Sequence record: QB031384.1
Reading direction: 5' to 3' (one strand)
Source of the DNA: a phage
DNA: 42,708 bases
The translations under genes were made by a program, and so were the position numbers. The notes under the pieces were generated by a model. The model was not told the origin of the DNA and made no database searches. It saw only the letters and a program-made list of their open reading frames with translations. Within the stretch, counting starts at the first letter, position 1; each line of letters starts with the position of its first letter. Below are positions 13,628 through 33,871 of this stretch, one piece after another.

Positions 13628-14620
13628 TTACGCAGTGGTGAAGCTAACGATAGCTGCGGTATCTGGACGACGGTTACCAACAGTATACATCGCATAGCAA
13701 TCCAGTACGTTAGCGAAGTTCAGTTCATCGTCCCAAATACGGGCGGTGAACGGTTGAGCTTCAACAGTTACCAGAGTCTTAGACTTGCTGAAGGTTACCA
13801 TACGGCACTTTGCATCAGCAGCAGTAACGGTATAAGCAGAACCCAGCGGATGCGGACCAGCGCCCGGGAACTCTACAGCCTCAACAACCGGGATACCGTT
13901 CATTACAACTACGCGACGCTGTTTGAAACCGTCATCGTTACTGTTACCAAAGTCACGGTCGAATAGTTTCGGGTGTTCCAGCAACTGAGAATAGATCTCA
14001 GTAGATACCAGAGTAACCATGTCAGACAGCGGAACCTTACGCTTAATCAGCTCGTCAACACCTTTACGGTGTGCTTCGTTGATTGCTACTGCGTTAGCTT
14101 CACGACCAGTTACGCCAACCGGGTTAGCAGTCAGCGAGGCAGCAATCTCAATACCATCAGAGAATGCAGGTTTCAGATGCTCAGGAGCAACCCAAGTACG
14201 GCCTTTAATCAGCTGAATCAAGTGTGCCTGGTCAAAGGTCTCTGCGAACTCATAACCGTTGTTCTGACCCATCTCGGTAAGGAAGTCTGGAGCAGTCCAA
14301 TCATCCTGATAGTCAATCGGGTTACGGATGTACAGCACGGTATCAACAACGATAATCATCTTATCGTTACGAACCGGAGTCGGAGCCAGAGCTTCACCAG
14401 ACTGACGGCCTTTAACTGAAGAAGTATTCAGGCGGTCAATACGATAAGTGTTAGACTGGTTCTGAGTAGAACGCTGAGAGGACAGGCCCAAGAACAGCGC
14501 TTGGTATTCGAAGCGAGAATCTACTTCTGATTGATACACTTCCAGATGGATGTCAGTATCAGACTGCGCGCCAGCCCAATGTGGCTTAGTTGAGTTACCA
14601 GTGTATGCAGTATTAGCCAT
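13628..14620 (-). CDS. Major capsid protein (T7 gp10-like)
   Basis: 330-aa ORF preceded by AGGAAA SD, located between the scaffold gene and the terminator. Call is by synteny and size. Confidence 0.8.
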   Translation of the reverse strand: MANTAYTGNSTKPHWAGAQSDTDIHLEVYQSEVDSRFEYQALFLGLSSQRSTQNQSNTYRIDRLNTSSVKGRQSGEALAPTPVRNDKMIIVVDTVLYIRNPIDYQDDWTAPDFLTEMGQNNGYEFAETFDQAHLIQLIKGRTWVAPEHLKPAFSDGIEIAASLTANPVGVTGREANAVAINEAHRKGVDELIKRKVPLSDMVTLVSTEIYSQLLEHPKLFDRDFGNSNDDGFKQRRVVVMNGIPVVEAVEFPGAGPHPLGSAYTVTAADAKCRMVTFSKSKTLVTVEAQPFTARIWDDELNFANVLDCYAMYTVGNRRPDTAAIVSFTTA

Positions 14621-15577: not shown

Positions 15578-17134
15578 TTATTGAATTAAACCTAATTGTT
15601 GACCTGCTACAGTCGGGTCAGTAACTTGCAATAATGATTGCTGCTGCTGCTGGTCCTGCTGCTGCTGTGCTTGCTCTGCTTGCTGGCGTGCTTGCAATTC
15701 CTCTTCACTATAGAAGAAGGCACTGCTCTGAATGCCGAAGCTATCCATTACACTGTCAATCAAAGCATCAACGTTAGTACGTACAGTTGCCTGTTGCAGT
15801 ACCGGTACAATTAATTGAAGACTCTGTACTGCTTCAAGTAGTCTATCAGCCTGGGCTGACTTGTACAAGCTAGCGGTCCCTACCGTTACATCCAGCCCCA
15901 ATGCACCGAGCTCGAACATAGGTCGAATCTCAGGATACTTATTAAGAACGTACAGGTACGCGAGTTTACGAAGCCAATTATCTGCAAGTGTAGAGTAAGC
16001 GTCACCTAAGGCTGATTGTGCTTCTTGAGCATTCTGACGAATCTCATAAGCAGTTACACGCTCACCTTGACGAGTGTTACCGCCGTACATGAATGCACGG
16101 GATAGCTTCTGCTCGATAGTGCTAATCTCAGCTTGTAGCGCGGCAATCTTCTGAGCGTTCCCACCTTCATGGGACCATACTCCAGAACTGGTACCTGCGG
16201 GCTGGTTAGTCTGTACGAACTCACCTGTCTCTGCATCTTGCAATGCATCAATATCTACACCAGAAGCTGAGCTAACCATGTTAACTACTCTCGCTGCTTC
16301 CACCTCATACAAGGTTAAGCTACGGGAAAGCACAGATAAACGGGCGAAGTCACCAGCGTAATCCTCAACGAGGCTACGACCGTAGTGCTCACCATTAACA
16401 AGGTTCCATGCCAGTACTACGTACGGACATTGGTCCTCAGGATAATAGCTAGGCTCACCTACAGGGTAGGTTTCGACTTCCTGATATACTTTATATACAT
16501 AACCAAGCTCACGACGCTCACGCATAATTCCAGTAAATAAGCGCACATCATCGTACATCTCCTTATTGGAGAAGTGAGCTCGTCGGATATCATCTGGGAT
16601 ATCCGCAACGCTGATACGTTCACGTAGGATTGTAGTCAGTACGTTACCGGCTCCATCACGCTTAGTAGCATAATCGCGCACGCTGTATACGTAAGAACGT
16701 TCAGTTTCGGAGTCGAAGTATTCCAGAGCATTGCCAGTTACGAGTAATAGTTTAATAGCGCGTAGCTTTGCAGCATACCCGCCTTTAGTGAATACGATAC
16801 TAGATGCTACAGCTTCCATTTCAGCCTGAGCTGAGAAGACCGAACCTTGCAGACCTAATTGGTCAACAATCCCTGTAAGGTCAGCGGATGCCGCGAATCT
16901 AAAGAATGGACTGCCTTGTGGAAACAATGCATCTACAATCTTAGTAGCTGCTGAGTTGACAAGCAGCGCACCAGTACTCTGATAGTCATGCACCAGAGAA
17001 GTACGCTTACCGTCACTCGCTGTAATATCCTTAGTGAATACGTTAGGAAGTGTCCAGCGAGCGTATTGCTCAGCAGCGTCTAGTGTAGATGCATCCTTCA
17101 ATCGAACGAATAAATCTGCTAAACGCTTTTGCAT
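15578..17134 (-). CDS. Head-tail connector (portal) protein (T7 gp8-like)
   Basis: 518-aa ORF, first large gene of the structural module, with an acidic/Gln-rich C-terminus. Call is by synteny. Confidence 0.75.
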   Translation of the reverse strand: MQKRLADLFVRLKDASTLDAAEQYARWTLPNVFTKDITASDGKRTSLVHDYQSTGALLVNSAATKIVDALFPQGSPFFRFAASADLTGIVDQLGLQGSVFSAQAEMEAVASSIVFTKGGYAAKLRAIKLLLVTGNALEYFDSETERSYVYSVRDYATKRDGAGNVLTTILRERISVADIPDDIRRAHFSNKEMYDDVRLFTGIMRERRELGYVYKVYQEVETYPVGEPSYYPEDQCPYVVLAWNLVNGEHYGRSLVEDYAGDFARLSVLSRSLTLYEVEAARVVNMVSSASGVDIDALQDAETGEFVQTNQPAGTSSGVWSHEGGNAQKIAALQAEISTIEQKLSRAFMYGGNTRQGERVTAYEIRQNAQEAQSALGDAYSTLADNWLRKLAYLYVLNKYPEIRPMFELGALGLDVTVGTASLYKSAQADRLLEAVQSLQLIVPVLQQATVRTNVDALIDSVMDSFGIQSSAFFYSEEELQARQQAEQAQQQQDQQQQQSLLQVTDPTVAGQQLGLIQ

Positions 17135-24943: not shown

Positions 24944-25924
24944 TTACTTCTTACGCCCTACCCAACGGCCGTCGGAATCCATCAGCATGGGGATGAGGCT
25001 CGGACAACCTTCGGTAATAGTCATGACACCTAAGATGGGCTTGTTACGTGAGAGCTTGCCGTATGCAAATGCCATTGCCTTATGATCAATCAAGCAACCT
25101 GCGTGTGCACCAAAGTACAGTGCTGTGCTGCTGGCCTTGTAAGTGATATCATACTTTCCATGCTCGTGGCCTATCACCATACTGGTACGTTCATGAGAGG
25201 CGTTCAGCATGAGGTCACCAGATACTTGATGCTGGAATCGTACAGGTCCGGTCGGAGTATTCAACACCCACGCATCCGACCAACTCCACTTCTTAGCCCC
25301 GTGCTCTGGGAACAGAATGTCACGGTACTTCTTAATGAATTGTACTGGTAAGCCATGTGCCTTAGCTCGACGATACACTAAGCTGCCGTGGTTGGAGTCA
25401 CACACCAGCAGGTTAGGGAAGAGGTCATGAATCTTAGCAAGATAAGCCTTAGCCTTCTCCAGTTCTACCCCCGCGCTATCTAGGTCAGGGTCAGAGTCGT
25501 GGAAGCTGATAGCGTGACCATCCGTCTCATCGCCTACCTGAACAACCATGTCAGGGCCGTAACTGTCTCTTACAGAACGAAGGAAAGCGAGAGCGTCAGG
25601 ATGTGTATAAGGAGCGTGCAAGTCTCCTACAACAAGGATGCGGTGGCACATATCAGGCACATTAGTATCGCCAATGTCGTCCGTAGGGGAAGGCTGAATA
25701 AGTTTACGAGCCTCGACCAAACCTTTGTTAGCTTTTGCTTTACTACCATTTGCGGCCTCATAAATTCTACGCCAGTACTTGACCAGCTGACGGTAAACTA
25801 CCGGCTCGCTCAGACCAGATGCTTCGTTATAAGCTGCTGCTGCCTCGACGTTAGATTTGTACTTGCTAAGAATCTCTTGATGTTGCTCTTTAGTGAACAG
25901 CTTAATAGCGTTAATGCGTGGCAT
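24944..25924 (-). CDS. Calcineurin-like metallophosphoesterase
   Basis: 326-aa ORF with metallophosphatase motifs in order: VVGDLHAPY, QVGDETDGH, CDSNHG, IGHEHG. Confidence 0.7.
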   Translation of the reverse strand: MPRINAIKLFTKEQHQEILSKYKSNVEAAAAYNEASGLSEPVVYRQLVKYWRRIYEAANGSKAKANKGLVEARKLIQPSPTDDIGDTNVPDMCHRILVVGDLHAPYTHPDALAFLRSVRDSYGPDMVVQVGDETDGHAISFHDSDPDLDSAGVELEKAKAYLAKIHDLFPNLLVCDSNHGSLVYRRAKAHGLPVQFIKKYRDILFPEHGAKKWSWSDAWVLNTPTGPVRFQHQVSGDLMLNASHERTSMVIGHEHGKYDITYKASSTALYFGAHAGCLIDHKAMAFAYGKLSRNKPILGVMTITEGCPSLIPMLMDSDGRWVGRKK

Positions 25925-26018
25925 TGTAATTCCTCAGTTGTCTGTGCCTAACGTTTCACTTCTACCCACCAAGTTTCACACTCAATGGAAGAAGTCAACA
26001 ATTTATTTAATTATTTGC

Positions 26019-26591
26019 TTACATTGCCCAATCAGGACGCTCACCCTTACCGCAGTAAAAGTCAATCAGGTCTAGTAAGCGCGGATAATACTTCAGCGAA
26101 CTCTTACCGTCCATTTCCGCAACCTGGCGCCTACTGAAGCTGCGCCACTCTGCTGCCGTATGCTGCTGACATCCTGCACGCACTATGTCCTTACAGATAC
26201 TAATGAAGTACGTTTCTCCGTATATAATGACAGTCTTGGCGCCGCGCAGGTCAGCGCGGCGCAGGTTAGCGCCGCGCAGGTCAGCGTAGCGCAGGTCAGC
26301 GTCGCGCAGGTCAGTACCGGTCAGGTCAGCGCCGCGCAGGTCAGCGATGCGCAGGTCAGCGTCGCGCAGGTCAGCGCCGCTCAGGTCAGCGCCGCGCAGG
26401 TCAGTACCGGTCAGGTCAGCGCCGCGCAGGTTAGCGTAGCGCAGGTTAGCGCCGCGCAGGTCAGCGTCGCGCAGGTCAGTGCTGCTCAGGTCAGCGTCGC
26501 ACAGGTCAGCGTCGCGCAGGTTAGCGCGGCGCAGGTCAACGCTGTGCAGTCTTCCTAACTTATATATTTCGCAGATTTCTTGATAGTTCAT
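26019..26591 (-). CDS. Pentapeptide-repeat protein 1 (about 21 tandem A(D/N)LxG-type pentapeptides plus 70-aa non-repeat C-terminal domain)
   Basis: 190-aa ORF with an unbroken run of [15 protein letters not shown] pentapeptides after the N-terminal cap [12 protein letters not shown]. Strand chosen because all flanking genes are minus-strand. Confidence 0.8.
26238..26549. repeat. Tandem array of about 21 copies of a 15-bp unit (CGCAGGTCAGCGNCG-like) encoding the pentapeptide repeats
   Basis: Periodicity is visible directly: gcgcaggtcagcg recurs every 15 bp, varying mainly at 2-3 positions per unit. Confidence 0.9.
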
Positions 26592-26623
26592 AGTTAACCT
26601 ATATGTAAAGAATTATTTATTAC

Positions 26624-26652
26624 TGGACAAATCCTGATATTCATGATATAAT
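26624..26652 (+). promoter_or_regulatory. Sigma70-like promoter on the plus strand (TGGACA - 17 bp - TGaTATAAT), antisense to all neighbouring genes; copy B of the inverted duplicated element
   Basis: Plus strand has TGGACA (26624-26629), a 17-nt spacer, then TGATATAAT with -10 at 26647-26652. Sequence is near-identical to the minus-strand element at 7095-7134. Confidence 0.35.
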
Positions 26653-26678
26653 AAAACCCTTCCTACGCAGGGCTACAC

Positions 26679-27182
26679 CTACTTCTCCACAACTTCATAC
26701 TCTCCATGATTAGGATGGAATCCATGTAACCGCTCGACAGCCTTTCTTGCTTTAACAGCAAGGGTAATATCTGTAAACAAGCCCAAGTGCATATAAATGC
26801 CATCTACCTTTATACGCGCACGCCACTTACCAGCATTCTTATCCCAGCCTACGCCGCATATGCCGCTGGTGTTGCTCGAGTGTAGCCTCATATTGCGGCT
26901 GTTAGTGCTTTGATTTACTAACCTTAGATTAATTAACCTATTATCATCTTTAATATGGTTAATATGGTCTATTTGCAAACCTGCCGGAATAGGTCCATTT
27001 ACCATCTCATAAATTATGCGATGTAATTTGTAAGTCTTACCCCTTACCATGACCTGCATGTAACCACGCTTGTTTAAGCAACCAGCTACCTCTCCTACCT
27101 TTGAAGCACTTCTAGGTAACCTAATCTTCCAAATCAAAGCCCCTGTATCTGGGCAGTAGTTGAATATACTATTCCAATCCAT
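26679..27182 (-). CDS. HNH homing endonuclease with AP2-like DNA-binding domain
   Basis: 167-aa ORF with HNH motif LQIDHINHIKDDNRLINLRLVNQSTNSRN and AP2-like GVGWDKNAGKWRARIKVDGIYMHLGLF. Second such gene in the genome. Confidence 0.7.
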   Translation of the reverse strand: MDWNSIFNYCPDTGALIWKIRLPRSASKVGEVAGCLNKRGYMQVMVRGKTYKLHRIIYEMVNGPIPAGLQIDHINHIKDDNRLINLRLVNQSTNSRNMRLHSSNTSGICGVGWDKNAGKWRARIKVDGIYMHLGLFTDITLAVKARKAVERLHGFHPNHGEYEVVEK

Positions 27183-27378
27183 AGTATTCCCCTTCTTCTA
27201 CTACAAGATATTCACAAGGTGCAAAAGTAAACTCCTCATCTTCATCTCCTAAATCAACCTCTCCTGTGTCAGGGAAGAACTCATATACTTCGTGAACACT
27301 GCCTACCGGGAATCTATCCATGTACTCGAACATCTCGCCTACACCATATGCACTGTAGTTAAGAATGCGAACTTTCAT
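27169..27378 (-). CDS. Hypothetical acidic protein (69 aa)
   Basis: First ORF downstream of the promoter-leader cassette at 27490-27638. Strongly acidic (DLGDEDEEF, VVEEGEYYGLE). Confidence 0.45.
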   Translation of the reverse strand: MKVRILNYSAYGVGEMFEYMDRFPVGSVHEVYEFFPDTGEVDLGDEDEEFTFAPCEYLVVEEGEYYGLE

Positions 27379-27489
27379 ATTGAATCCTCTTAAGTCTGCA
27401 ACCTCACCGCGAAGTTGCTTAACTAAGAGACTTCCTTAGCGAGTCTTATTTCTCTTAGACTCTCATCTGCATCGCACTGTATTACCTGT

Positions 27490-27638
27490 GCACGGGAGGA
27501 ACCGCTCAAGCTCGTACTATCTACCCAGAGCTTTCAGGAGGGCACCGGGATTAAAGTCCCCGGTGACTAACAAGCCGCTTTGCTATCTGCATCTCGTCTT
27601 GATGAAATGAATTCTACAGCATTCTAAAACTGTGTCAA
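27490..27638 (-). promoter_or_regulatory. Promoter-leader cassette R1: sigma70-like promoter (TTGACA - 16 bp - TAGAAT) plus conserved structured 5' leader
   Basis: -35 at 27633-27638 and -10 at 27611-27616. Downstream leader contains a hairpin (CACCGGG/CCCGGTG), GCCCTCCTGAA, a second hairpin with loop GGGTAGATA, and GAGCGGTTCCTCCCGT. Homologous to copies at 34406-34528 and 35943-36080. Confidence 0.55.
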
Positions 27639-27650
27639 CACTTATTTTAA

Positions 27651-28838
27651 TTAAATTACCTCTTCCTCTTTAAAGGATTTACCAATACCACATTCGGCGG
27701 GAAACTTAACTTCAGACAGTATGCCAAAGTTAGGCCACAACTGTAGCATCCTATCACGGGCTCCTTCCATAACGTTTTTGATGAGCTTACCCGCCTTACG
27801 GGCCGTCTCTTCGTCAGCACAATCTATGTACAAACAGTCATGGACGGTAACCAGCAAACACCATTTACCCCCCATCCAATTGTCAGCTATACCAGCCCTC
27901 ATAGCCATTCCGGTTGCAATAAGCATAAGCAGGGAACCTGATCCTTGAAACGGATAGTTAGCCATCTCTGTGGGCTTAAAGTCCATTACCTGCTTACCTT
28001 CGCGCCACACCGGCTTCTGACGGAAGCGGTAGCGAGTACCGCAAGGCGTAGTGAAGTAGCCCTCGCGATAGATACGCCAGCTGCCGTCATCTGCTTGTTC
28101 ACGGCGTATAGGCTCCAGCAGCGCAGTACGGTTTACTTCAGCTGCAATGACATCCCTGTACTTAATAGACTCAGGGAATAGTGCCTCCTCGTTAGCTAAG
28201 AACTTCTCAGCGTCGGCTAAGCTAGCACCTGAGGCGAACGCCAGTCCTTTAGCGGATGCTCCATATTGTGCTGCGAAGCTGAAGGTTTTGATGGCTGTTC
28301 GCTTCTTCTTCCATCCTTTATGGTCCGGTGCATCCGGGTTATGGCAAAGCTCGTAGACTTCTTCATAAGGCATACCTTCTTGGAATGCTAGACGATAGCA
28401 GTGCATATCCGTACCGGCTTCAAGCAAGCTCAGTAATTTCTTATCACCAGTGATTACACAGCCCATTACAACCTCCATAGCTGAGTAGTCACACTGTGCA
28501 ATCATACCCTGCTCACCATAGCGGCTACGCAGAATCTGCTTAACCTTAGACTCACGCGGCAGCTGCTGCATGTTCGGGTTAGATGTTGACAGGCGTCCGG
28601 TAGTAGTTGAGCAGTGATTCGACCTGTGGTGAATGATGCCAGAACCATCTGCTGATGTAGGGATGACGTACGGCAGCATGCCCGTCACCTTACGCAGACT
28701 GCCATCCTTATTAGTCTCACGTACTTCATAGAAGCCGAGGTCCTTCTGGCGTGTAGTCATTTCTTTGTATGCTTTGAAGAAGTCTGAAGCTAACTTAGCC
28801 ATCTTGTTCCATCCCAATAAAATAATGTGCAAGGTCAT
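27651..28838 (-). CDS. DNA polymerase, family A: polymerase (fingers/palm) part
   Basis: 395-aa ORF with TGRLSTSNPNMQQLP, motif A-like CDYSAMEV, motif B-like RTAIKTFSFAAQYG and motif C VHD. Overlaps the upstream exonuclease-domain ORF by 44 nt in a different frame. Confidence 0.85.
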   Translation of the reverse strand: MTLHIILLGWNKMAKLASDFFKAYKEMTTRQKDLGFYEVRETNKDGSLRKVTGMLPYVIPTSADGSGIIHHRSNHCSTTTGRLSTSNPNMQQLPRESKVKQILRSRYGEQGMIAQCDYSAMEVVMGCVITGDKKLLSLLEAGTDMHCYRLAFQEGMPYEEVYELCHNPDAPDHKGWKKKRTAIKTFSFAAQYGASAKGLAFASGASLADAEKFLANEEALFPESIKYRDVIAAEVNRTALLEPIRREQADDGSWRIYREGYFTTPCGTRYRFRQKPVWREGKQVMDFKPTEMANYPFQGSGSLLMLIATGMAMRAGIADNWMGGKWCLLVTVHDCLYIDCADEETARKAGKLIKNVMEGARDRMLQLWPNFGILSEVKFPAECGIGKSFKEEEVI

Positions 28839-29940
28839 TCATTGCGTCCGTTCCTGTGCTGTACACAGGGCTACCATCCGCTAATGTTTGAGCACCTTTG
28901 TATTCACCGCGGTCTCCGTACTTCTCACGTAGAGACTGAGGTAGGTCCTGAATATTAACCAGCCCGTCGAAGCGGTACAGGCGTTCACCCCACTTCATAG
29001 CTTGCTCGTCAGTGTCTACTTTTATGAACTTAGGCATACCCTTATTACGCCCAGACTTATACACCCCGTCCTGTACTTCCTTCTTAATGTATTTAGGTGG
29101 GTCATAAGGAACCTTGCACTTGTACTTAACCATGCCACCATACACTAAAGCGGACATATGATAACCGCTATTCCAGTTAAACTCGAAGCCCTCTGGCAAT
29201 TCTGGCAAGAATGTCTGAAGTAACTCCCGCAGATTCCGAATAGCGTCCTCCTGCTCCTTCTGGTTTACGCGTGCTGTAGGCATATCAACGTACACGCCAT
29301 TGAACTCACAGTATGCCAGAGCTGCGACTGCCTCCATCCTTTCCCAGACCATAGGCATCTGTCCACGTTCCGCAAATACTGCGCATTGCCCGTAGAAGCA
29401 CAGCGCTGTGTTGACTATGTCACCGTTAGGCCCTGTTAAGTATTCATGTAGTAGCATAGGGTCAATGTCTGCTGTCAGAACCCCTTGCTGCCATAGTAGC
29501 TTAACGCCGTCGACTTTGTGTGACCCGCCATACTTAGGGGCAGTCTCATCTAGTGACGGGTAAAGATTCTGGAAGTCGCTGGCAATGTACTCGCCCTGCA
29601 TAGTATCAAAGACTCGACCTCCTCGTCTAAGGAACGACTCGAACTGCTCACGGGCAAAGGTCAGCGCCCAGCTAATCTCGTACGCTGCGTTGTGCGCTAC
29701 GATTAACCACGTATCATCCTGAATAGGTAGCCACTGCTTAGGGTCAGCTGCTAAGAAATCAGTTCGGGATTCATAGCGTACACTCTGCACCTCGCTGCAC
29801 TGTACAGTCCCATCCGGCATAGTCCTATCAATGCGGAAGCCTGATTCTACGATGTAGTTATCAGGGCAGTACGGAGTTGCGACCCCGCCGTAGTACGGAT
29901 GATTTTGAGTTTCAATATCCCAAATTAGAATGCTACTCAT
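28795..29940 (-). CDS. DNA polymerase, family A: N-terminal 3'-5' exonuclease part (separate frame from the polymerase part)
   Basis: Exo I motif WDIET near the N-terminus. The ORF track starts it at a TTG (29946); the ATG at 29940 overlaps the upstream small ORF's stop as ATGA. Ends 44 nt inside the polymerase-domain ORF. Confidence 0.8.
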   Translation of the reverse strand: MSSILIWDIETQNHPYYGGVATPYCPDNYIVESGFRIDRTMPDGTVQCSEVQSVRYESRTDFLAADPKQWLPIQDDTWLIVAHNAAYEISWALTFAREQFESFLRRGGRVFDTMQGEYIASDFQNLYPSLDETAPKYGGSHKVDGVKLLWQQGVLTADIDPMLLHEYLTGPNGDIVNTALCFYGQCAVFAERGQMPMVWERMEAVAALAYCEFNGVYVDMPTARVNQKEQEDAIRNLRELLQTFLPELPEGFEFNWNSGYHMSALVYGGMVKYKCKVPYDPPKYIKKEVQDGVYKSGRNKGMPKFIKVDTDEQAMKWGERLYRFDGLVNIQDLPQSLREKYGDRGEYKGAQTLADGSPVYSTGTDAMNDLAHYFIGMEQDG

Positions 29941-30089
29941 TTCCAATTACTCCGACGTGATTTATTAATGGCTGCCCGTACAATCATCTCGCTACTGTCC
30001 AGCGTGTAGCGCCTAACCTGCTTACGATTGTTAGCAATTGCTCTGATGACTTCGTAGTCTGCCTCAGTAATATCACTTTGCTTTAGCAT
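29937..30089 (-). CDS. Small basic ORF (50 aa), not in ORF track
   Basis: ATG at 30089-30087 preceded by GGTGAGGTG; stop overlaps the DNA polymerase ATG. Translation MLKQSDITEADYEVIRAIANNRKQVRRYTLDSSEMIVRAAINKSRRSNWK. Confidence 0.35.
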   Translation of the reverse strand: MLKQSDITEADYEVIRAIANNRKQVRRYTLDSSEMIVRAAINKSRRSNWK

Positions 30090-30234
30090 TGTTATTCACC
30101 TCACCTTTAAGGCCAGCTAGATGGGATTTAAGGCACTCGACTAACTCAACAATAGTATCCTCATCCAGTTCGAACATTCCTGAATCCCCCTGCTCCAACT
30201 CTATTAATTTTAAAGCTGCTTCATGTAATGTCAT
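30073..30234 (-). CDS. Small acidic ORF (53 aa), not in ORF track
   Basis: ATG at 30234-30232 preceded by a near-consensus SD, AGGAGGT, at about 7 nt. Translation MTLHEAALKLIELEQGDSGMFELDEDTIVELVECLKSHLAGLKGEVNNNAKAK. Confidence 0.45.
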   Translation of the reverse strand: MTLHEAALKLIELEQGDSGMFELDEDTIVELVECLKSHLAGLKGEVNNNAKAK

Positions 30235-30287
30235 TGCCTTACCTCCTAGTTAGTTGACACTGCGCCCCTTGCGAGACGCAGTAGCTA

Positions 30288-31574
30288 CTACGCTAAGCCT
30301 TCTGAGAACCGACACGTACCTCCGTTAAACTCTACCTGAAATTGAACATACGCTGGACTGCCTGACAGTCCTAGCTTATTTTTTGGTGTCGAGATTCCAC
30401 GTACCGTAGCCATATCCGGCCTATCGTTAACATTCATGCGACCCATCATAATACACAAATCTAAAGCCCCTTGAATTCCTATCTTAGAACCTTTCAGCGC
30501 TGTCAGCGGGGGGTACATACAGTCATACCCTTCGACTGACAGCTGCACAGTTCCTAAGATTATACAGTCGTGTTCGCATCCTAAGATTCGTAACTGCTGC
30601 CACTTCTGCTCTAATGCCTGGTATTCAGATTCAGCGTTCCCGCCTTTGATGTTACTTACCATGTCCACCACCAGCACAGCCGGACGCATCTCTTCCAGAA
30701 GGGTAGAGATTTGCCCCAAGCTCATACTGTGGGCATCCTTAACGCGAATCTTATCCCACGTCCCGACCTTCTTCAGATACTTGTCCGCGAACTTACCTTC
30801 CTTATGCTGCTCAACAATCTGCTGCAACGTAAGCCCAGTAGCTGCTTGATAGATACGCGGAACAGTACGCTTAGCTAGTGATTCGTTCACTAACCAGAGT
30901 ATCGGTCTGTCAGAGTAGATGTCAGGGCTTTGATGCATCTGCTCTGCAAGCGAGACAACGGTAGCAGCAAGCAGACTCGTCTTTCCCGCGTCCACTGGCG
31001 CAGCAATAGCGACGCAATCACCACCACGCAGGCCGCGAATGTTCCGAGATAACTCAGAGAATACAGTAAGCTGTAACCCGCCGCTTTCATCAGTAGCTGC
31101 AAGGATATCATCTACACCTCCGTCTTCCCATTTCAATAATGAATCATTAGCAGCTGCTACGCCTGAGTACTTACGCTCAAGCGCTTTAGCTTCTTGTACG
31201 AAATCTATTTCCCCTCCTGCCTGATACTTACTTACAAGCGCAGCCATCTCACCTGAGTAAGCCAGCTCGTTCAGAGTCTTAACTGTACCAGCTACAAGCT
31301 CGTTAGGTACGTTCTGGATAGTCTTAAGCATATGCTTCAGGATATCCATCTGCTCTTTCTGAAGATGCGTACCGCGCATATCCAAGAGCGTATTCATCAT
31401 CTCAAAGTTAACTTCGTTAGAGTCAGGGTAAGTTGCAAAGTACAGTTGCAGCCAACCAATCATCGCTACTGTATCAGGTGCTAACAGAGACTTAGGTGTC
31501 TGCTCATACAACCTGTCCATTATCTTACGTTCACAGAAAGCGCGTAGTAAATTAAAGTCCATCAAGTGCTCCAA
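30288..31574 (-). CDS. Replicative DNA helicase (DnaB/T7 gp4 helicase-domain-like)
   Basis: 428-aa ORF with Walker A AAPVDAGKTS and Walker B-like VLVVDMV. Lies between primase and DNA polymerase. Confidence 0.8.
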   Translation of the reverse strand: MEHLMDFNLLRAFCERKIMDRLYEQTPKSLLAPDTVAMIGWLQLYFATYPDSNEVNFEMMNTLLDMRGTHLQKEQMDILKHMLKTIQNVPNELVAGTVKTLNELAYSGEMAALVSKYQAGGEIDFVQEAKALERKYSGVAAANDSLLKWEDGGVDDILAATDESGGLQLTVFSELSRNIRGLRGGDCVAIAAPVDAGKTSLLAATVVSLAEQMHQSPDIYSDRPILWLVNESLAKRTVPRIYQAATGLTLQQIVEQHKEGKFADKYLKKVGTWDKIRVKDAHSMSLGQISTLLEEMRPAVLVVDMVSNIKGGNAESEYQALEQKWQQLRILGCEHDCIILGTVQLSVEGYDCMYPPLTALKGSKIGIQGALDLCIMMGRMNVNDRPDMATVRGISTPKNKLGLSGSPAYVQFQVEFNGGTCRFSEGLA

Positions 31575-32322
31575 GTATTTGGCTGCATTGAGCAGCCTTT
31601 GGGTCTACGTTCAGATGTCTATCATGCACGGGCACGAAGGGCTTAAGTTGCTTAGTAATTGAAACCGTGCCGTTCCAACCTGCACGGTCATCGTCTAACA
31701 TACAGATTACTGGCTTACCTTCTTTAATAAGTTGGGCCTTAAGCCCAAGCGGAAGCTTCGTCCCAAGCAAAGCTATTGCCTGAGCAGTCTGTGAAGAATA
31801 CTTCTCCAAGACCTGCTGAACCTTCAGCGCTGAAAGGTAGTCCTCGGTCAGTATCGTTATGGTTCCAGTATTCCCAAGCTGCACCCACTGTAATGACTTC
31901 CCTAGCATCACCCACTTCGGATGCTGGTACTCGTGCAGTGCTCTTGCTATGTAACTTCCCGTTGATAATTTCCACACTAACCTCTTGTATTGTTCTGAGT
32001 AATAAACGTCGCCGACCATATCAGGCCAGATGCCTTTCTGTATTAAGAATCCGTATAGGAACTGCTGAAGCCCTACGTCCAGTTCAGGCAGCGGCTTCAG
32101 GTCCTGAGGGGCGGCTAACTCACGCCCCAGCACTTCTGGTACTGCTAATTGAGCGTACTGCTTACGCTCTGAATGATATGACTTGCATCTGAAGCAAGAG
32201 CAAGTCCACTTATCTGGCTCGTTCCTGATTACTGCTGCTGCTGTTTTACCGCAGCATCGGAATCTTTCAGTTTGGCCAACAGCCAATCTCTGTGCTGCTC
32301 TAAGCCATTGCTCGTTAGCCAT
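31552..32322 (-). CDS. DNA primase (zinc-ribbon + TOPRIM)
   Basis: 256-aa ORF with an N-terminal Cys cluster (CCGKT ... CSCFRC) and TOPRIM acidic motifs (LTEDYLSA, MLDDDRAG). Confidence 0.75.
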   Translation of the reverse strand: MANEQWLRAAQRLAVGQTERFRCCGKTAAAVIRNEPDKWTCSCFRCKSYHSERKQYAQLAVPEVLGRELAAPQDLKPLPELDVGLQQFLYGFLIQKGIWPDMVGDVYYSEQYKRLVWKLSTGSYIARALHEYQHPKWVMLGKSLQWVQLGNTGTITILTEDYLSALKVQQVLEKYSSQTAQAIALLGTKLPLGLKAQLIKEGKPVICMLDDDRAGWNGTVSITKQLKPFVPVHDRHLNVDPKAAQCSQILGALDGL

Positions 32323-32501
32323 GATTCTATTAACTCCTTAACGTTATCACTCGTAACGAATACCGTACTGCATGCAGGGTTATCCTCAAATCCGTGCAGC
32401 TGGTCTATACGGTAGATACTGCTACTCCCTGTCTTGATAGGGGAAATCTTTAAGTTGTGCTCAACGAAGTTCATTAGATACCTCTGTAGGATGTCTGCCA
32501 T
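32229..32501 (-). CDS. Hypothetical protein (90 aa)
   Basis: ORF-track ORF that overlaps the primase 5' end by 94 nt in another frame, which weakens the call. Confidence 0.35.
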   Translation of the reverse strand: MADILQRYLMNFVEHNLKISPIKTGSSSIYRIDQLHGFEDNPACSTVFVTSDNVKELIESWLTSNGLEQHRDWLLAKLKDSDAAVKQQQQ

Positions 32502-32803
32502 GCATAATACTCAATGCAAGCAGCCTTAAACGCCTGCTTAGCGCCTTCATACCCCAGCTGCTGCAACTGCCTTACTATATCGAAATTGATGCGTCGCAGG
32601 ACCTCTGAGGCCCTTTCAGCATCATACTTATAATAACCTACCAACAACCGCATACCTTCCTTAGTATCGTAGTCCCTGCACCATTTTAAAGGGCAGAGCT
32701 TACGCAGTTCAATCGGTACGTCCTTTAACGTCTTAAGGCCTAAGCTGCTCTGGCTCTCGAGCATACGCCAGTACTGCTCTGTTACTTCTTCTACTGGTAA
32801 CAT
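32474..32803 (-). CDS. Hypothetical protein (109 aa)
   Basis: ORF starting about 10 nt after the stop of pentapeptide-repeat protein 2. No motif recognised. Confidence 0.5.
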   Translation of the reverse strand: MLPVEEVTEQYWRMLESQSSLGLKTLKDVPIELRKLCPLKWCRDYDTKEGMRLLVGYYKYDAERASEVLRRINFDIVRQLQQLGYEGAKQAFKAACIEYYAWQTSYRGI

Positions 32804-32813
32804 GCCTAGCTCC

Positions 32814-33350
32814 TTAGATACTAACCCAATCAGCGACGCGCAGGTCAGCGTCGCGCAGGTCAGTGCCGGTCAGGTCAGCGCCGCGCAGGTTAGCGCCGCG
32901 CAGGTTAGCGCCAATCAGGTTAGCGTCGCGCAGGTTAGCGCCGCTCAGGTCAGTGCCGCGCAGGTTAGCGCCGCGCAGGTTAGCGCCGTGCAGGTCAGCG
33001 CTGCGCAGGTCAGCGCCGCTCAGGTCAGCGCCGCTCAGGTCAGCGATGTTCAGGTCAGCGTAGCGCAGGTCAGCGCCGCGCAGGTCAGCGCCGCTCAGGT
33101 CAGCGCCGCGCAGGTTAGCGCCAATCAGGTTAGCGTCGCGCAGCTTAGCGTCGCTCAGGTCAGCGACGCGCAGGTCAGCGTCGCTCAGGTCAGCGTAGCG
33201 CAGGTCAGCGCCGCTCAGGTCAGCGCCGCGCAGGTCAGCGTCGAGCAGGTTAGCGCGGCGCAGGTCAGCGCCGCACAGGTCAGCGCCGCACAGGTCAGCG
33301 CCTTCCAAGGATTCTAACTTGTATTTATTACAGATATTGTCATAAGTCAT
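32814..33350 (-). CDS. Pentapeptide-repeat protein 2 (about 32 tandem pentapeptides; paralogue of 26019-26591)
   Basis: Unbroken A(D/N)L(R/S/C)G-type run that ends at the stop codon. Preferred start is the internal ATG at 33350 (GAGGT SD 8 nt upstream; cap MTYDNICNKYKL matches [12 protein letters not shown] of protein 1). The ORF track extends it to 33401. Confidence 0.8.
   Translation of the reverse strand: MTYDNICNKYKLESLEGADLCGADLCGADLRRANLLDADLRGADLSGADLRYADLSDADLRVADLSDAKLRDANLIGANLRGADLSGADLRGADLRYADLNIADLSGADLSGADLRSADLHGANLRGANLRGTDLSGANLRDANLIGANLRGANLRGADLTGTDLRDADLRVADWVSI
32827..33302. repeat. Tandem array of about 32 copies of the same 15-bp unit (CGCAGGTCAGCGNCG-like)
   Basis: Same 15-bp periodicity and unit sequence as the array at 26238-26549, on the same strand. 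Confidence 0.9.
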
Positions 33351-33360
33351 ATTAGTAACC

Positions 33361-33597
33361 TCAGTTAATTTTAATATTAAAACGTGCACAATACCCTTCA
33401 AGGGTCATCCCTACTTTAGCTGCTTTAAGACTGTAAGCTAACTTAAGAGCTTCCTTAGCGTCATGCTCACGAGCCAGCTTCTCAATCGTTACTTCATCAT
33501 TACGCATCAGAATCATTTCGGGGTTCCGGTTAATCATTTCTGCATCTCCAGTTTGAAAAGGGCCATTGCAGCGTTCCAGGCGAAACGCGGGTTGCAT
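33361..33597 (-). CDS. Hypothetical protein (78 aa)
   Basis: ORF-track ORF in the early/middle region. No motif recognised. Confidence 0.45.
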   Translation of the reverse strand: MQPAFRLERCNGPFQTGDAEMINRNPEMILMRNDEVTIEKLAREHDAKEALKLAYSLKAAKVGMTLEGYCARFNIKIN

Positions 33598-33658
33598 TCA
33601 TTGTTAATCAGGAAAGTGTGATAAGCCTTAGCAATCTGCTGTGCTTTCTGTTGCTGTG

Positions 33659-33871
33659 TCATTCTAAATTCCTCTGTAAGTAATACATGTATACTTCACG
33701 AGCTCGCATTTTAGCGTAATCTTCGCAATGCCCTCTCTTAATCGCAGCAAGGTAAGTTTCGGTAGCCGCCTTCCGAGCGCATGTCTTTACATAAGAGTTA
33801 AACCAGTTATTAAAGCCCATCATTTTGTAATCCTCTGTAGAAGTAAGTTTGCTGACGCTGACGTTTCTCAT
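33659..33871 (-). CDS. Hypothetical protein (70 aa)
   Basis: ORF-track ORF. Its 5' end overlaps the SD-supported small ORF at 33800-33976, so the true start may be an internal Met near 33823. Confidence 0.4.
   Translation of the reverse strand: MRNVSVSKLTSTEDYKMMGFNNWFNSYVKTCARKAATETYLAAIKRGHCEDYAKMRAREVYMYYLQRNLE

Follow-up and report, generated by a model that had tools for sequence, protein, structure and literature searches.

Pentapeptide-repeat genes of a T7-like coliphage as nucleotide-level 15-bp tandem arrays, and the turnover of repeat units in their viral homologues

Phage genes encoding pentapeptide-repeat proteins (PRPs) with variable numbers of repeat units are known already, the closest described case being orf-232 of the P22-like phages. 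Zaworski et al. (PMC8022706) reported just two differences between phages L and ST64T, which agree to more than 99.9%, and one of the two is a 15-bp unit in orf232. The subject of the present work is a pair of PRP genes, named here PRP-A and PRP-B, carried by a Slopekvirinae (T7-like) coliphage on a stretch of 42,708 nucleotides (record QB031384.1), the whole of which is referred to below as the window. The locus joins the known phage genes through the kinship of the PRP-A C-terminal domain to that of orf-232. Like PRP-A, members of the orf-232 family are composed of a cap, a codon-homogeneous 15-bp array and then a phrog_37032 domain (about 66% identity); they are accessory early genes, and their unit number varies in 15-bp steps. 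The two differ, however, in several respects. The N-terminal caps are unlike, one of them reading MNSADLSKILEEHK, and that of PRP-A is not of the MN.ADL.KIL.EHK.W type of the orf-232 family. The master codons of the repeat are GCC..GGT in the orf-232 family and GCT..GGC in the window. Moreover, the orf-232 hosts are temperate and hold the gene beside ral in the early-left operon, whereas the window phage is lytic and T7-like, with PRP-A placed behind the DNA polymerase and flanked by the genes for an HNH endonuclease and a phosphoesterase. PRP-B, unlike the orf-232 family, is devoid of a C-terminal domain.

At the protein level, Qnr, MfpA, AlbG and McbG resemble the window PRPs in belonging to family PF00805 and in their predicted right-handed quadrilateral beta-helix. 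The gyrase-protecting DNA mimics of the Qnr/MfpA type form dimeric, strongly acidic rods that are DNA-like in size, dimerise through the C-terminus and, in Qnr, carry two loops. PRP-B is acidic (net charge -11), while PRP-A is nearly neutral (-2). Unlike the window genes, those of Qnr and MfpA are not tandem repeats at the DNA level, and the cellular PRP genes sampled here show normal synonymous decay. Neither Qnr loops nor a C-terminal dimerisation helix was identified in the window PRPs, the repeats of which run uninterrupted by loops. The best sequence match among solved structures (E = 6.5e-43) is to designed consensus solenoids (PDB 4yc5, 5dra and the related 'beta1'); cyanobacterial PRPs, MfpA and Qnr are also among the nearest solved sequences. 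The designed solenoids are synthetic and carry engineered caps; the window PRPs are, like them, close to an idealised consensus repeat, a likeness which tells that near-perfect repeats fold, and nothing more. Near-identical DNA repeats are also the hallmark of the TAL-effector genes and of bacterial contingency or variable-number tandem-repeat (VNTR) loci, where the differences lie in a few codons, those of the specificity residues, and the number of repeats changes by recombination or slippage; the window arrays differ from these in a unit of only 15 bp and in showing no phase variation (on/off switching). For the pattern found in viruses, that is, repeats at the nucleotide level with conserved master codons and one-step non-synonymous variation, no published description was found in the literature, nor was any functional study of phage PRPs; cellular arrays show no such pattern.

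The two arrays of the window are the repeat cores of two paralogous PRP genes. Tandem Repeats Finder reports array A at 26239-26542 (period 15, 20.3 copies, 82% matches, score 391) and array B at 32830-33302 (period 15, 31.5 copies, 84% matches, score 596); in frame, they comprise 20 units at 26241-26540 and 31 units at 32835-33299, respectively, all of 15 bp and on the minus strand. PRP-A (26019-26591, minus strand; 190 amino acids, aa) consists of an N-terminal cap, 20 A(D/N)LXX units and a 70-aa C-terminal domain (26022-26240, minus strand), the latter being common to orf-232 of the P22-like phages. PRP-B (32814-33350, minus strand; 178 aa from the ATG at 33350) has an N-terminal cap and 31-32 units with no extra domain. 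Both proteins score above the family cut-off of Pfam Pentapeptide, PF00805 (E = 2.7e-37 for PRP-A and 4.3e-58 for PRP-B), and the C-terminal domain of PRP-A matches phrog_37032 with E = 3.8e-31, the motif GCQxH...EW..FS...MDG...FYPRLL...GKGERPDW being present after the array. AlphaFold2 models residues 21-90 of PRP-A with a mean pLDDT of 91-96 over 10-residue blocks, a confident prediction of a right-handed quadrilateral beta-helix for the repeat region, and a Foldseek search with this model retrieves PRP structures at E ~1e-10. Structure comparison with the model of the C-terminal domain (pLDDT 79) gave no informative neighbour.

Arrays A and B share the same master unit, GCT GAC CTG CGC GGC (ADLRG; minus strand, GCTGACCTGCGCGGC). 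Allowing at most three mismatches, GCTGACCTGCGCGGC is matched 51 times in the window, and 48 of these matches lie in register within the two arrays; in shuffled sequence 1.2 are expected, and 5 were seen at most. As both arrays are read on the minus strand they are direct repeats, with 6,288 bp between them, which confirms the description given by the first-pass annotation of two 15-bp tandem arrays in direct orientation 6.3 kb apart. Their GC content is 70-71% (71% in array A), against 48% for the genome. Exact copies of 39 bp (offset 90) and of 42 bp (offset 210) recur internally and probably go back to block duplications, and the two arrays share 14 exact matches of at least 25 bp, the longest of 41 bp. 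Single-stranded, the array folds better than its shuffles (z = -4.85), which is compatible with slipped structures or intermediates. An assembly artefact as the source of the arrays was rejected, for the same arrays are present in the independent genome of Escherichia phage vB_EcoP_P64441 (hereafter P64441).

Variation among the 51 units is confined almost entirely to positions that alter the protein. At unit positions 3, 6 and 9 the minor bases account for 0-2%, and at positions 12 and 15 for 4%; their frequency rises to 10-37% at positions 1, 4, 10, 11, 13 and 14, all of which fall on the first or second base of a codon. Measured against the master unit, the variant codons of the window are 64 non-synonymous and 2 synonymous, where random point mutation of that unit would give a synonymous share of about 31%. 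A binomial test on the 81 differing nucleotide positions, 2 of them synonymous, yields p = 5e-11, a value that treats as independent events units that are not. Of the 64 non-synonymous variant codons, 51 can be reached from the master in a single step, and in 61 the wobble base of the master is retained. The wobble positions, to which the first-pass annotation had assigned part of the variation, are therefore almost invariant. Codon choice within the arrays also departs from that of the genome: Arg is CGC in 34 of 34 cases (24.5% in the genome, where CGT is preferred with 51%), Gly is GGC in 25 of 27 (24%; GGT preferred, 48%), Leu is CTG in 51 of 52 (29%), Asp is GAC in 48 of 48 (45%) and Ala is GCT in 45 of 45 (42%). 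Given the amino-acid sequences, the probability of these choices under genome usage is log10 P = -46 for array A and -73 for array B, and the Arg and Gly codons preferred by the capsid-like gene at 13628-14620 differ from those of the arrays too. Because the codon choice lies so far from genome usage, the units must be regarded as copies of one another and not as independent solutions, and the nucleotide-level homogeneity noticed at first inspection is borne out.

The same property proved to be shared by viral PRP genes in general, and cellular ones lack it. Using a codon-agnostic probe of two adjacent ADLRG units in any codons (GCNGAYCTNCGNGGN twice), 120 loci were sampled from IMG/VR viral contigs and 120 from one genome per bacterial or archaeal species. 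The seed dimers carry identical codons at 98 of the 120 viral loci, compared with 20 of the 120 cellular ones, and among arrays of at least eight units, zero synonymous variants occur in 53 of 112 viral and in 3 of 107 cellular cases. The median synonymous share of variant codons is 3% in viruses and 37.5% in cells, and the median use of the master codon 0.987 and 0.699, respectively (Mann-Whitney p = 1e-26). The expectation that old protein repeats diverge at synonymous sites thus holds for cellular PRP genes, which show such decay, whereas viral ones do not. The 112 viral arrays use 75 distinct master units; it follows that no particular nucleotide sequence is required. The unit of the window is found in 2 of the 112, so that its identity with that of Eggerthella phage PMBT5 is unremarkable, and a universal nucleotide constraint, as this identity might have suggested, is ruled out by the 75 master units.

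In viral arrays, the amino-acid repertoire at variable positions consists of the one-step neighbours of each array's own master codon. Where the master is GGT, 171 of 178 acidic codons are GAT (Asp); GGC masters lead to GAC and GGA masters to Glu GAA, whereas CGG masters lead to Gln and Trp and CGC masters to Ser (AGC), Cys, Gly and His. Overall, 64% of the viral non-synonymous variants are one step from the master, against 26% of the cellular ones. In GGT-master arrays Asp is written GAC at unit position 2 and GAT at position 5, which points to mutational ancestry and not to codon preference. At CGC positions, synonymous variants are some 15-fold rarer than one-step non-synonymous ones, where the neutral expectation is 1:2, indicating that amino-acid changes are favoured or synonymous ones disfavoured.

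Turnover of units is directly visible in homologues. A word-indexed protein search with the C-terminal domain returned four proteins only, but tblastn and motif scans revealed a wider family, the phrog_37032 domain being found by tblastn in 43 phage records that include ST64T orf-232, ST104 orf19, epsilon34 gp42, g341c gp37 and phage L orf232; a scan of IMG/VR with a degenerate N-cap pattern gave chance matches only. Across eight P22-like phages, only 0-3 nt vary in the cap (78 nt) and the C-terminal domain (258 nt), while the arrays between them hold 11, 13, 13, 14, 16, 16, 20 and 25 units with differing residue patterns, each array being 100% codon-homogeneous. A relative of PMBT5 (L024) has a cap 98.8% identical to that of PMBT5, with 28 units against 23, and contains a perfect internal duplication of 158 bp, offset by nine units. 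The change of repeat number within arrays that the first-pass annotation had anticipated is hence seen in homologues, in line with the published case of phages L and ST64T. Together with the contrast between viral and cellular genes, the series of 11 to 25 units places these arrays among the fastest-changing coding sequences of otherwise near-identical phages, and makes them a tractable case for the birth and tuning of repeat proteins.

A more conservative picture emerges from the nearest relative of the window. P64441 (Autographivirales, Slopekvirinae) is 98.8-98.9% identical over most of the region, and its PRP-A orthologue shows 93.6% protein identity. Array A has 20 units in both genomes, in register, with 13 of 300 nt different (4.3%; 8 non-synonymous and 3 synonymous codons); the C-terminal domain differs at 4 of 213 nt. 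PRP-B has 31 units in both and differs at 3 of 537 nt, all of them non-synonymous and two within the array, compared with 1.1% in the flanks. A recent length change in this lineage, as implied by the first-pass annotation, is accordingly not borne out. On the other hand, the only two ADLTG units of array A, units 9 and 15, both carry GGT in the window and both GGC in P64441, and units 6 and 13 both carry GCT in the window and both GTT in P64441. Paired changes of this kind are classically left by conversion, or by parallel replacement, inside an array, although they amount to two events only. Thus, of the proposal of recent slippage or gene conversion, the paired changes and the turnover in homologues favour the process, whereas its recency is overstated for this lineage.

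Relatives at a greater distance show other states of the locus. The window is about 80% identical to phages PAS7, S.Kent 1-2-1 and ECO104 4-5-2 and about 70% to KKP 3828. PAS7 has PRP-A only, with the same master codons but 31 rearranged units against 20 in the window, and its reading frame is broken by a 4-bp GGCG deletion that leaves an 11-bp unit 15 (L002, 2829-3359), which marks either a true pseudogene or an error in the sequence. A short Logan contig (L258) has a PRP-A orthologue at the same position upstream of the phosphoesterase with three units only, which differ synonymously from one another (CTA/CTG, CGC/CGT, GGT/GGC); this looks like an unexpanded state, with assembly collapse as the alternative. 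Viewed as a coding VNTR locus, the window therefore agrees with P64441 in 20/20 and 31/31 units, but PAS7 has 31 and L258 has 3. S.Kent 1-2-1 is cleanly without both PRP genes, having 18 bp in place of 26005-26610 and about 92 bp in place of 32818-33456; PRP-A is missing likewise from ECO104 4-5-2, the stretch compared ending before the PRP-B site. No array was found within the 17-kb stretch of KKP 3828 that was compared, nor in the compared stretches of six relatives from a helicase-anchored search of IMG/VR. PRP-A and PRP-B are hence dispensable in close relatives.

The reading that we favour, at a probability of roughly 0.72, is that single 15-bp units or multi-unit blocks are duplicated, deleted and converted in frame, a process by which the arrays are formed and reshaped, and that one-step amino-acid changes are retained. 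Replication slippage or recombination between misaligned units would be the likely route. All units would descend recently from the master GCT GAC CTG CGC GGC, leaving no time for synonymous differences to accumulate. Point mutations one or two steps from the master codons would then alter outward-facing residues (i-1, i+1 and i+2, with A/T at i-2), and such changes would be retained and copied, most likely by selection. The products are predicted to be beta-helical rods of variable length, encoded in the early or DNA-metabolism part of the genome, which may bind a host or defence component.

Several observations weigh against this proposal. Unit count and register are kept relative to P64441, so turnover is not fast on that timescale. 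Furthermore, the master unit is more stable than a neutral model would have it. Between the window and PAS7, 53% of the codons for the same amino acid differ in the C-terminal domain, and yet all five wobble bases of the master are shared. In seven IMG/VR members the flanks on both sides differ by 2-66% at synonymous sites (about 40-66% in most pairs), while in each of the 21 pairs the master unit has 0 of 5 wobble bases different; the master wobble bases are conserved in six further metagenomic members as well. Neutral concerted evolution is insufficient in this respect, because under it the master should drift as fast as single-copy sequence does at synonymous sites, which is not seen. The survey has its own bounds, since the probe requires two adjacent ADLRG units and the cellular sample is dominated by high-GC Actinobacteria, although the strong codon bias of these bacteria should, if anything, raise cellular homogeneity. 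Finally, the role assigned to the proteins is drawn from genomic context.

Candidate explanations for the conservation of the master are the exchange of arrays between phages and a selection on master codons amplified by copy number. A mosaic member, L048, has a cap like that of L076 (4% synonymous difference) and a C-terminal domain like that of L038 (3%). It is possible, although we regard it as rather doubtful, that phage PRP genes as a class are recombination-driven hypervariable loci, in which a short master unit undergoes copying, loss and reshuffling at a pace well above that of mutation elsewhere in the genome. Selection would act, in an arms race against some variable target of the host (for instance a defence nuclease), on one-step changes of residues at the outer face of the beta-helix, and arrays would be exchanged between co-infecting phages. 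Such exchange would explain identical master codons beside flanks saturated at synonymous sites, and the two arrays of the window would be one instance of the class.

Alternatively, the arrays could be the frozen product of a single past amplification burst, inherited since then as ordinary single-copy sequence with no ongoing slippage or conversion. The equal unit numbers (20 and 31) and the in-register positional orthology between the window and P64441 are what this would predict, as is the divergence of PRP-B, which does not exceed that of its flanks. We nevertheless consider a frozen burst unlikely, as the identical paired changes in paralogous units of the window and P64441, the rearranged units of PAS7 and the P22-like arrays that change while their flanks stay identical all speak for continued remodelling, and an old frozen array should carry synonymous differences, as cellular arrays do. 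A still less probable view is that codon selection alone, through translation or tRNA supply, acts on five reused codons with no recombinational homogenisation. The codons used are all C- or G-ending or common major codons, the master units are conserved where flanks are saturated at synonymous sites, and the strength of selection on a master codon would presumably scale with its copy number. However, the phage prefers CGT and GGT, its capsid-like gene included, while the arrays use CGC and GGC; viral arrays employ 75 different master units; within the very same gene, the C-terminal domain is free of codon constraint; and the use of GAC at position 2 beside GAT at position 5 in GGT-master arrays is not what a preferred Asp codon would give. 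Changes of unit number are, in addition, left unexplained by codon selection.

That the arrays might function as DNA, as iteron-like or recombination sites that regulate, excise or amplify the replication module, is suggested by their arrangement as direct repeats around polymerase, helicase and primase and by the exact matches of up to 41 bp that they share. The bracketing claimed by the first-pass annotation is indeed correct: between the arrays, on the minus strand at 26679-32803, lie an HNH endonuclease, a 69-aa open reading frame (ORF), the DNA polymerase in two overlapping ORFs, the helicase, the primase and two small ORFs. Yet relatives keep the replication genes with one array or none, homologous arrays elsewhere are single, as beside ral in the P22-like phages, and the arrays are coding sequence of 70% GC whose variable positions are exactly those that determine amino acids, which makes a function as DNA very improbable. 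For the same reasons, namely coding sequence at 70% GC and relatives with the same replication genes but no arrays, iterons or origin repeats, which are non-coding, lie beside an AT-rich unwinding element and are bound by an initiator, were rejected. As close relatives carry one array or none, the bracketing is best seen as incidental and not designed; among the relatives compared, it is peculiar to this phage and P64441. Recombination between the arrays would in principle be physically possible across the 41-bp match and would remove polymerase, helicase and primase, but the products of such a deletion would be dead, and the two-array arrangement persists in two sequenced isolates. A diversity-generating retroelement, which would combine a reverse transcriptase and a template repeat with mutagenesis specific to adenine, was likewise rejected, for the variable master positions (1, 4, 10, 11, 13 and 14) are G or C; a unit scan of the window found no template copy outside the two arrays, and the annotation of the 13-kb stretch compared from the near-identical P64441 includes no reverse transcriptase.

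As to what the proteins may do, their place in the genome gives some hints. PRP-A follows the DNA polymerase, and PRP-B precedes the primase. The orf-232 homologue lies directly after ral in ST64T, ST104, ST160, L and Salfasec13b, and the P22-like homologue is upstream of 17, c3, kil, erf and, in stretches that reach them, abc1/abc2; in other temperate contigs, the homologue has the immunity region on one side and a RecT/YqaJ module on the other, or else GamL as a neighbour. The P22-like homologues thus neighbour anti-restriction and anti-RecBCD genes, which makes them candidates for host-interaction or counter-defence factors. T7 Ocr, gp5.9 and lambda Gam are small, early, accessory DNA-mimic inhibitors of host nucleases. 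PRP-A, downstream of the DNA polymerase, occupies roughly the place of gene 5.9 in T7, and the P22-like homologue is found in an operon that holds ral and abc1/abc2, which recalls the phage nuclease inhibitors; the likeness to Ocr, gp5.9 and Gam is a functional analogy only, with no relationship in sequence or fold to the window PRPs. By association with such neighbours, an early host-interaction or counter-defence role, possibly exerted by a DNA-like rod, can be put forward tentatively, at somewhat less than even odds. A published test found no inhibition of BREX by McbG and QnrB, both of them cellular PRPs (PMC7261183).

The two arrays also account for two GC-rich islands of the window and for two long plus-strand ORFs with AQVS repeats, at 26160-26558 over array A and at 32802-33317 over array B, which are spurious antisense by-products, as proposed at first inspection. 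The antisense frame is free of stop codons because Leu is always CTG and Ser always AGC on the sense strand. That the AQVS ORFs are real genes which constrain the sense wobble positions is hardly credible. It is true that they are long, begin with ATG and match Pfam PF25296 'Decapeptide repeat region' with 46 and 66 bits (gathering cut-off 45), and that the sense wobble position is the first codon position of the antisense frame. However, when non-overlapping ORFs of 80 aa or more are picked greedily by length, 35 of 37 lie on the minus strand; Pentapeptide matches the sense strand much more strongly (E = 1e-37 and 1e-58); and other viral arrays that use CTA for Leu (L052, L115 and L093) are equally codon-homogeneous although this places a TAG stop in each antisense unit and closes the frame. 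PF25296 matches the sense PRPs as well, and this family may capture wrong-strand translations of pentapeptide genes. In the PAS7 record, the antisense ORF is annotated as 'modular polyketide synthase' and the C-terminal domain of PRP-A as a separate 75-aa protein.

A 26-fold excess of pentapeptide repeats in viral long-read data over assemblies has been reported, the reason given by the authors being that repeats break assemblies (PMC9238414). In the metagenome scaffold L137, upstream of 8001, a run of N lies inside the array of a homologue, and the called protein (P0003) is truncated. The array structure explains annotation and short-read assembly errors of this kind, among them the wrong strand in PAS7, the scaffold gap and the 26-fold enrichment in long reads. 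Other viral PRPs have at least two further distinct C-terminal domains, and Ralstonia phage DLDT_So2 (L004, 2101-3009) encodes a PRP with a different one (…DMGVWHTTCGTAHCRAGW…), in which the Ala codon tracks the next residue, being GCT before GAC and GCG before AAC or TAC; a 45-bp higher-order repeat is present there in three copies.

Around the arrays, a few further features of the window deserve mention. A hairpin with a T run resembling a terminator is located at 26655-26674 (minus strand), between the HNH gene and the start codon of PRP-A; a scan for sigma-70 promoters and terminators gave nothing above chance except one hairpin upstream of PRP-A, and an Rfam scan of 25800-33800 gave no match. 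The HNH endonuclease beside PRP-A (26679-27182) is absent from P64441, in which 26703-27207 is without a counterpart, and P64441 has a different HNH gene between polymerase and helicase (L001, 6407-6832) that is absent from the window (junction 30301/30311). As each has an HNH gene that the other lacks, the two phages differ by mobile HNH genes. The block 24962-26702 is only 86.7% identical to P64441, against 98.8-98.9% on its far side, while the PRP-A gene within it reaches 96-98%; the low identity lies mostly in the phosphoesterase gene (24962-26000), which indicates a recombination mosaic boundary beside PRP-A. The DNA polymerase is found as two ORFs, 27651-28838 and 28795-29946, with a 44-nt overlap, and is annotated alike in P64441 and PAS7; in S.Kent 1-2-1, a 729-bp insertion (L005, 5206-5935) interrupts the C-terminal half of the polymerase at the position corresponding to 28575/28576. 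These features could reflect a split gene, a frameshift, or the site of an intron or homing element. The replication module is also about 80% identical to GenBank records named 'Listeria phage LM 4-11-1 / 4-14-1' (UNVERIFIED_ORG, wastewater), whose attribution to a Listeria host is probably wrong. Elsewhere in the window, a short imperfect repeat rich in CTG/TGC (periods 3 to 21, score at most 65) lies at 15638-15695, near the boundary of two ORFs of the structural region.

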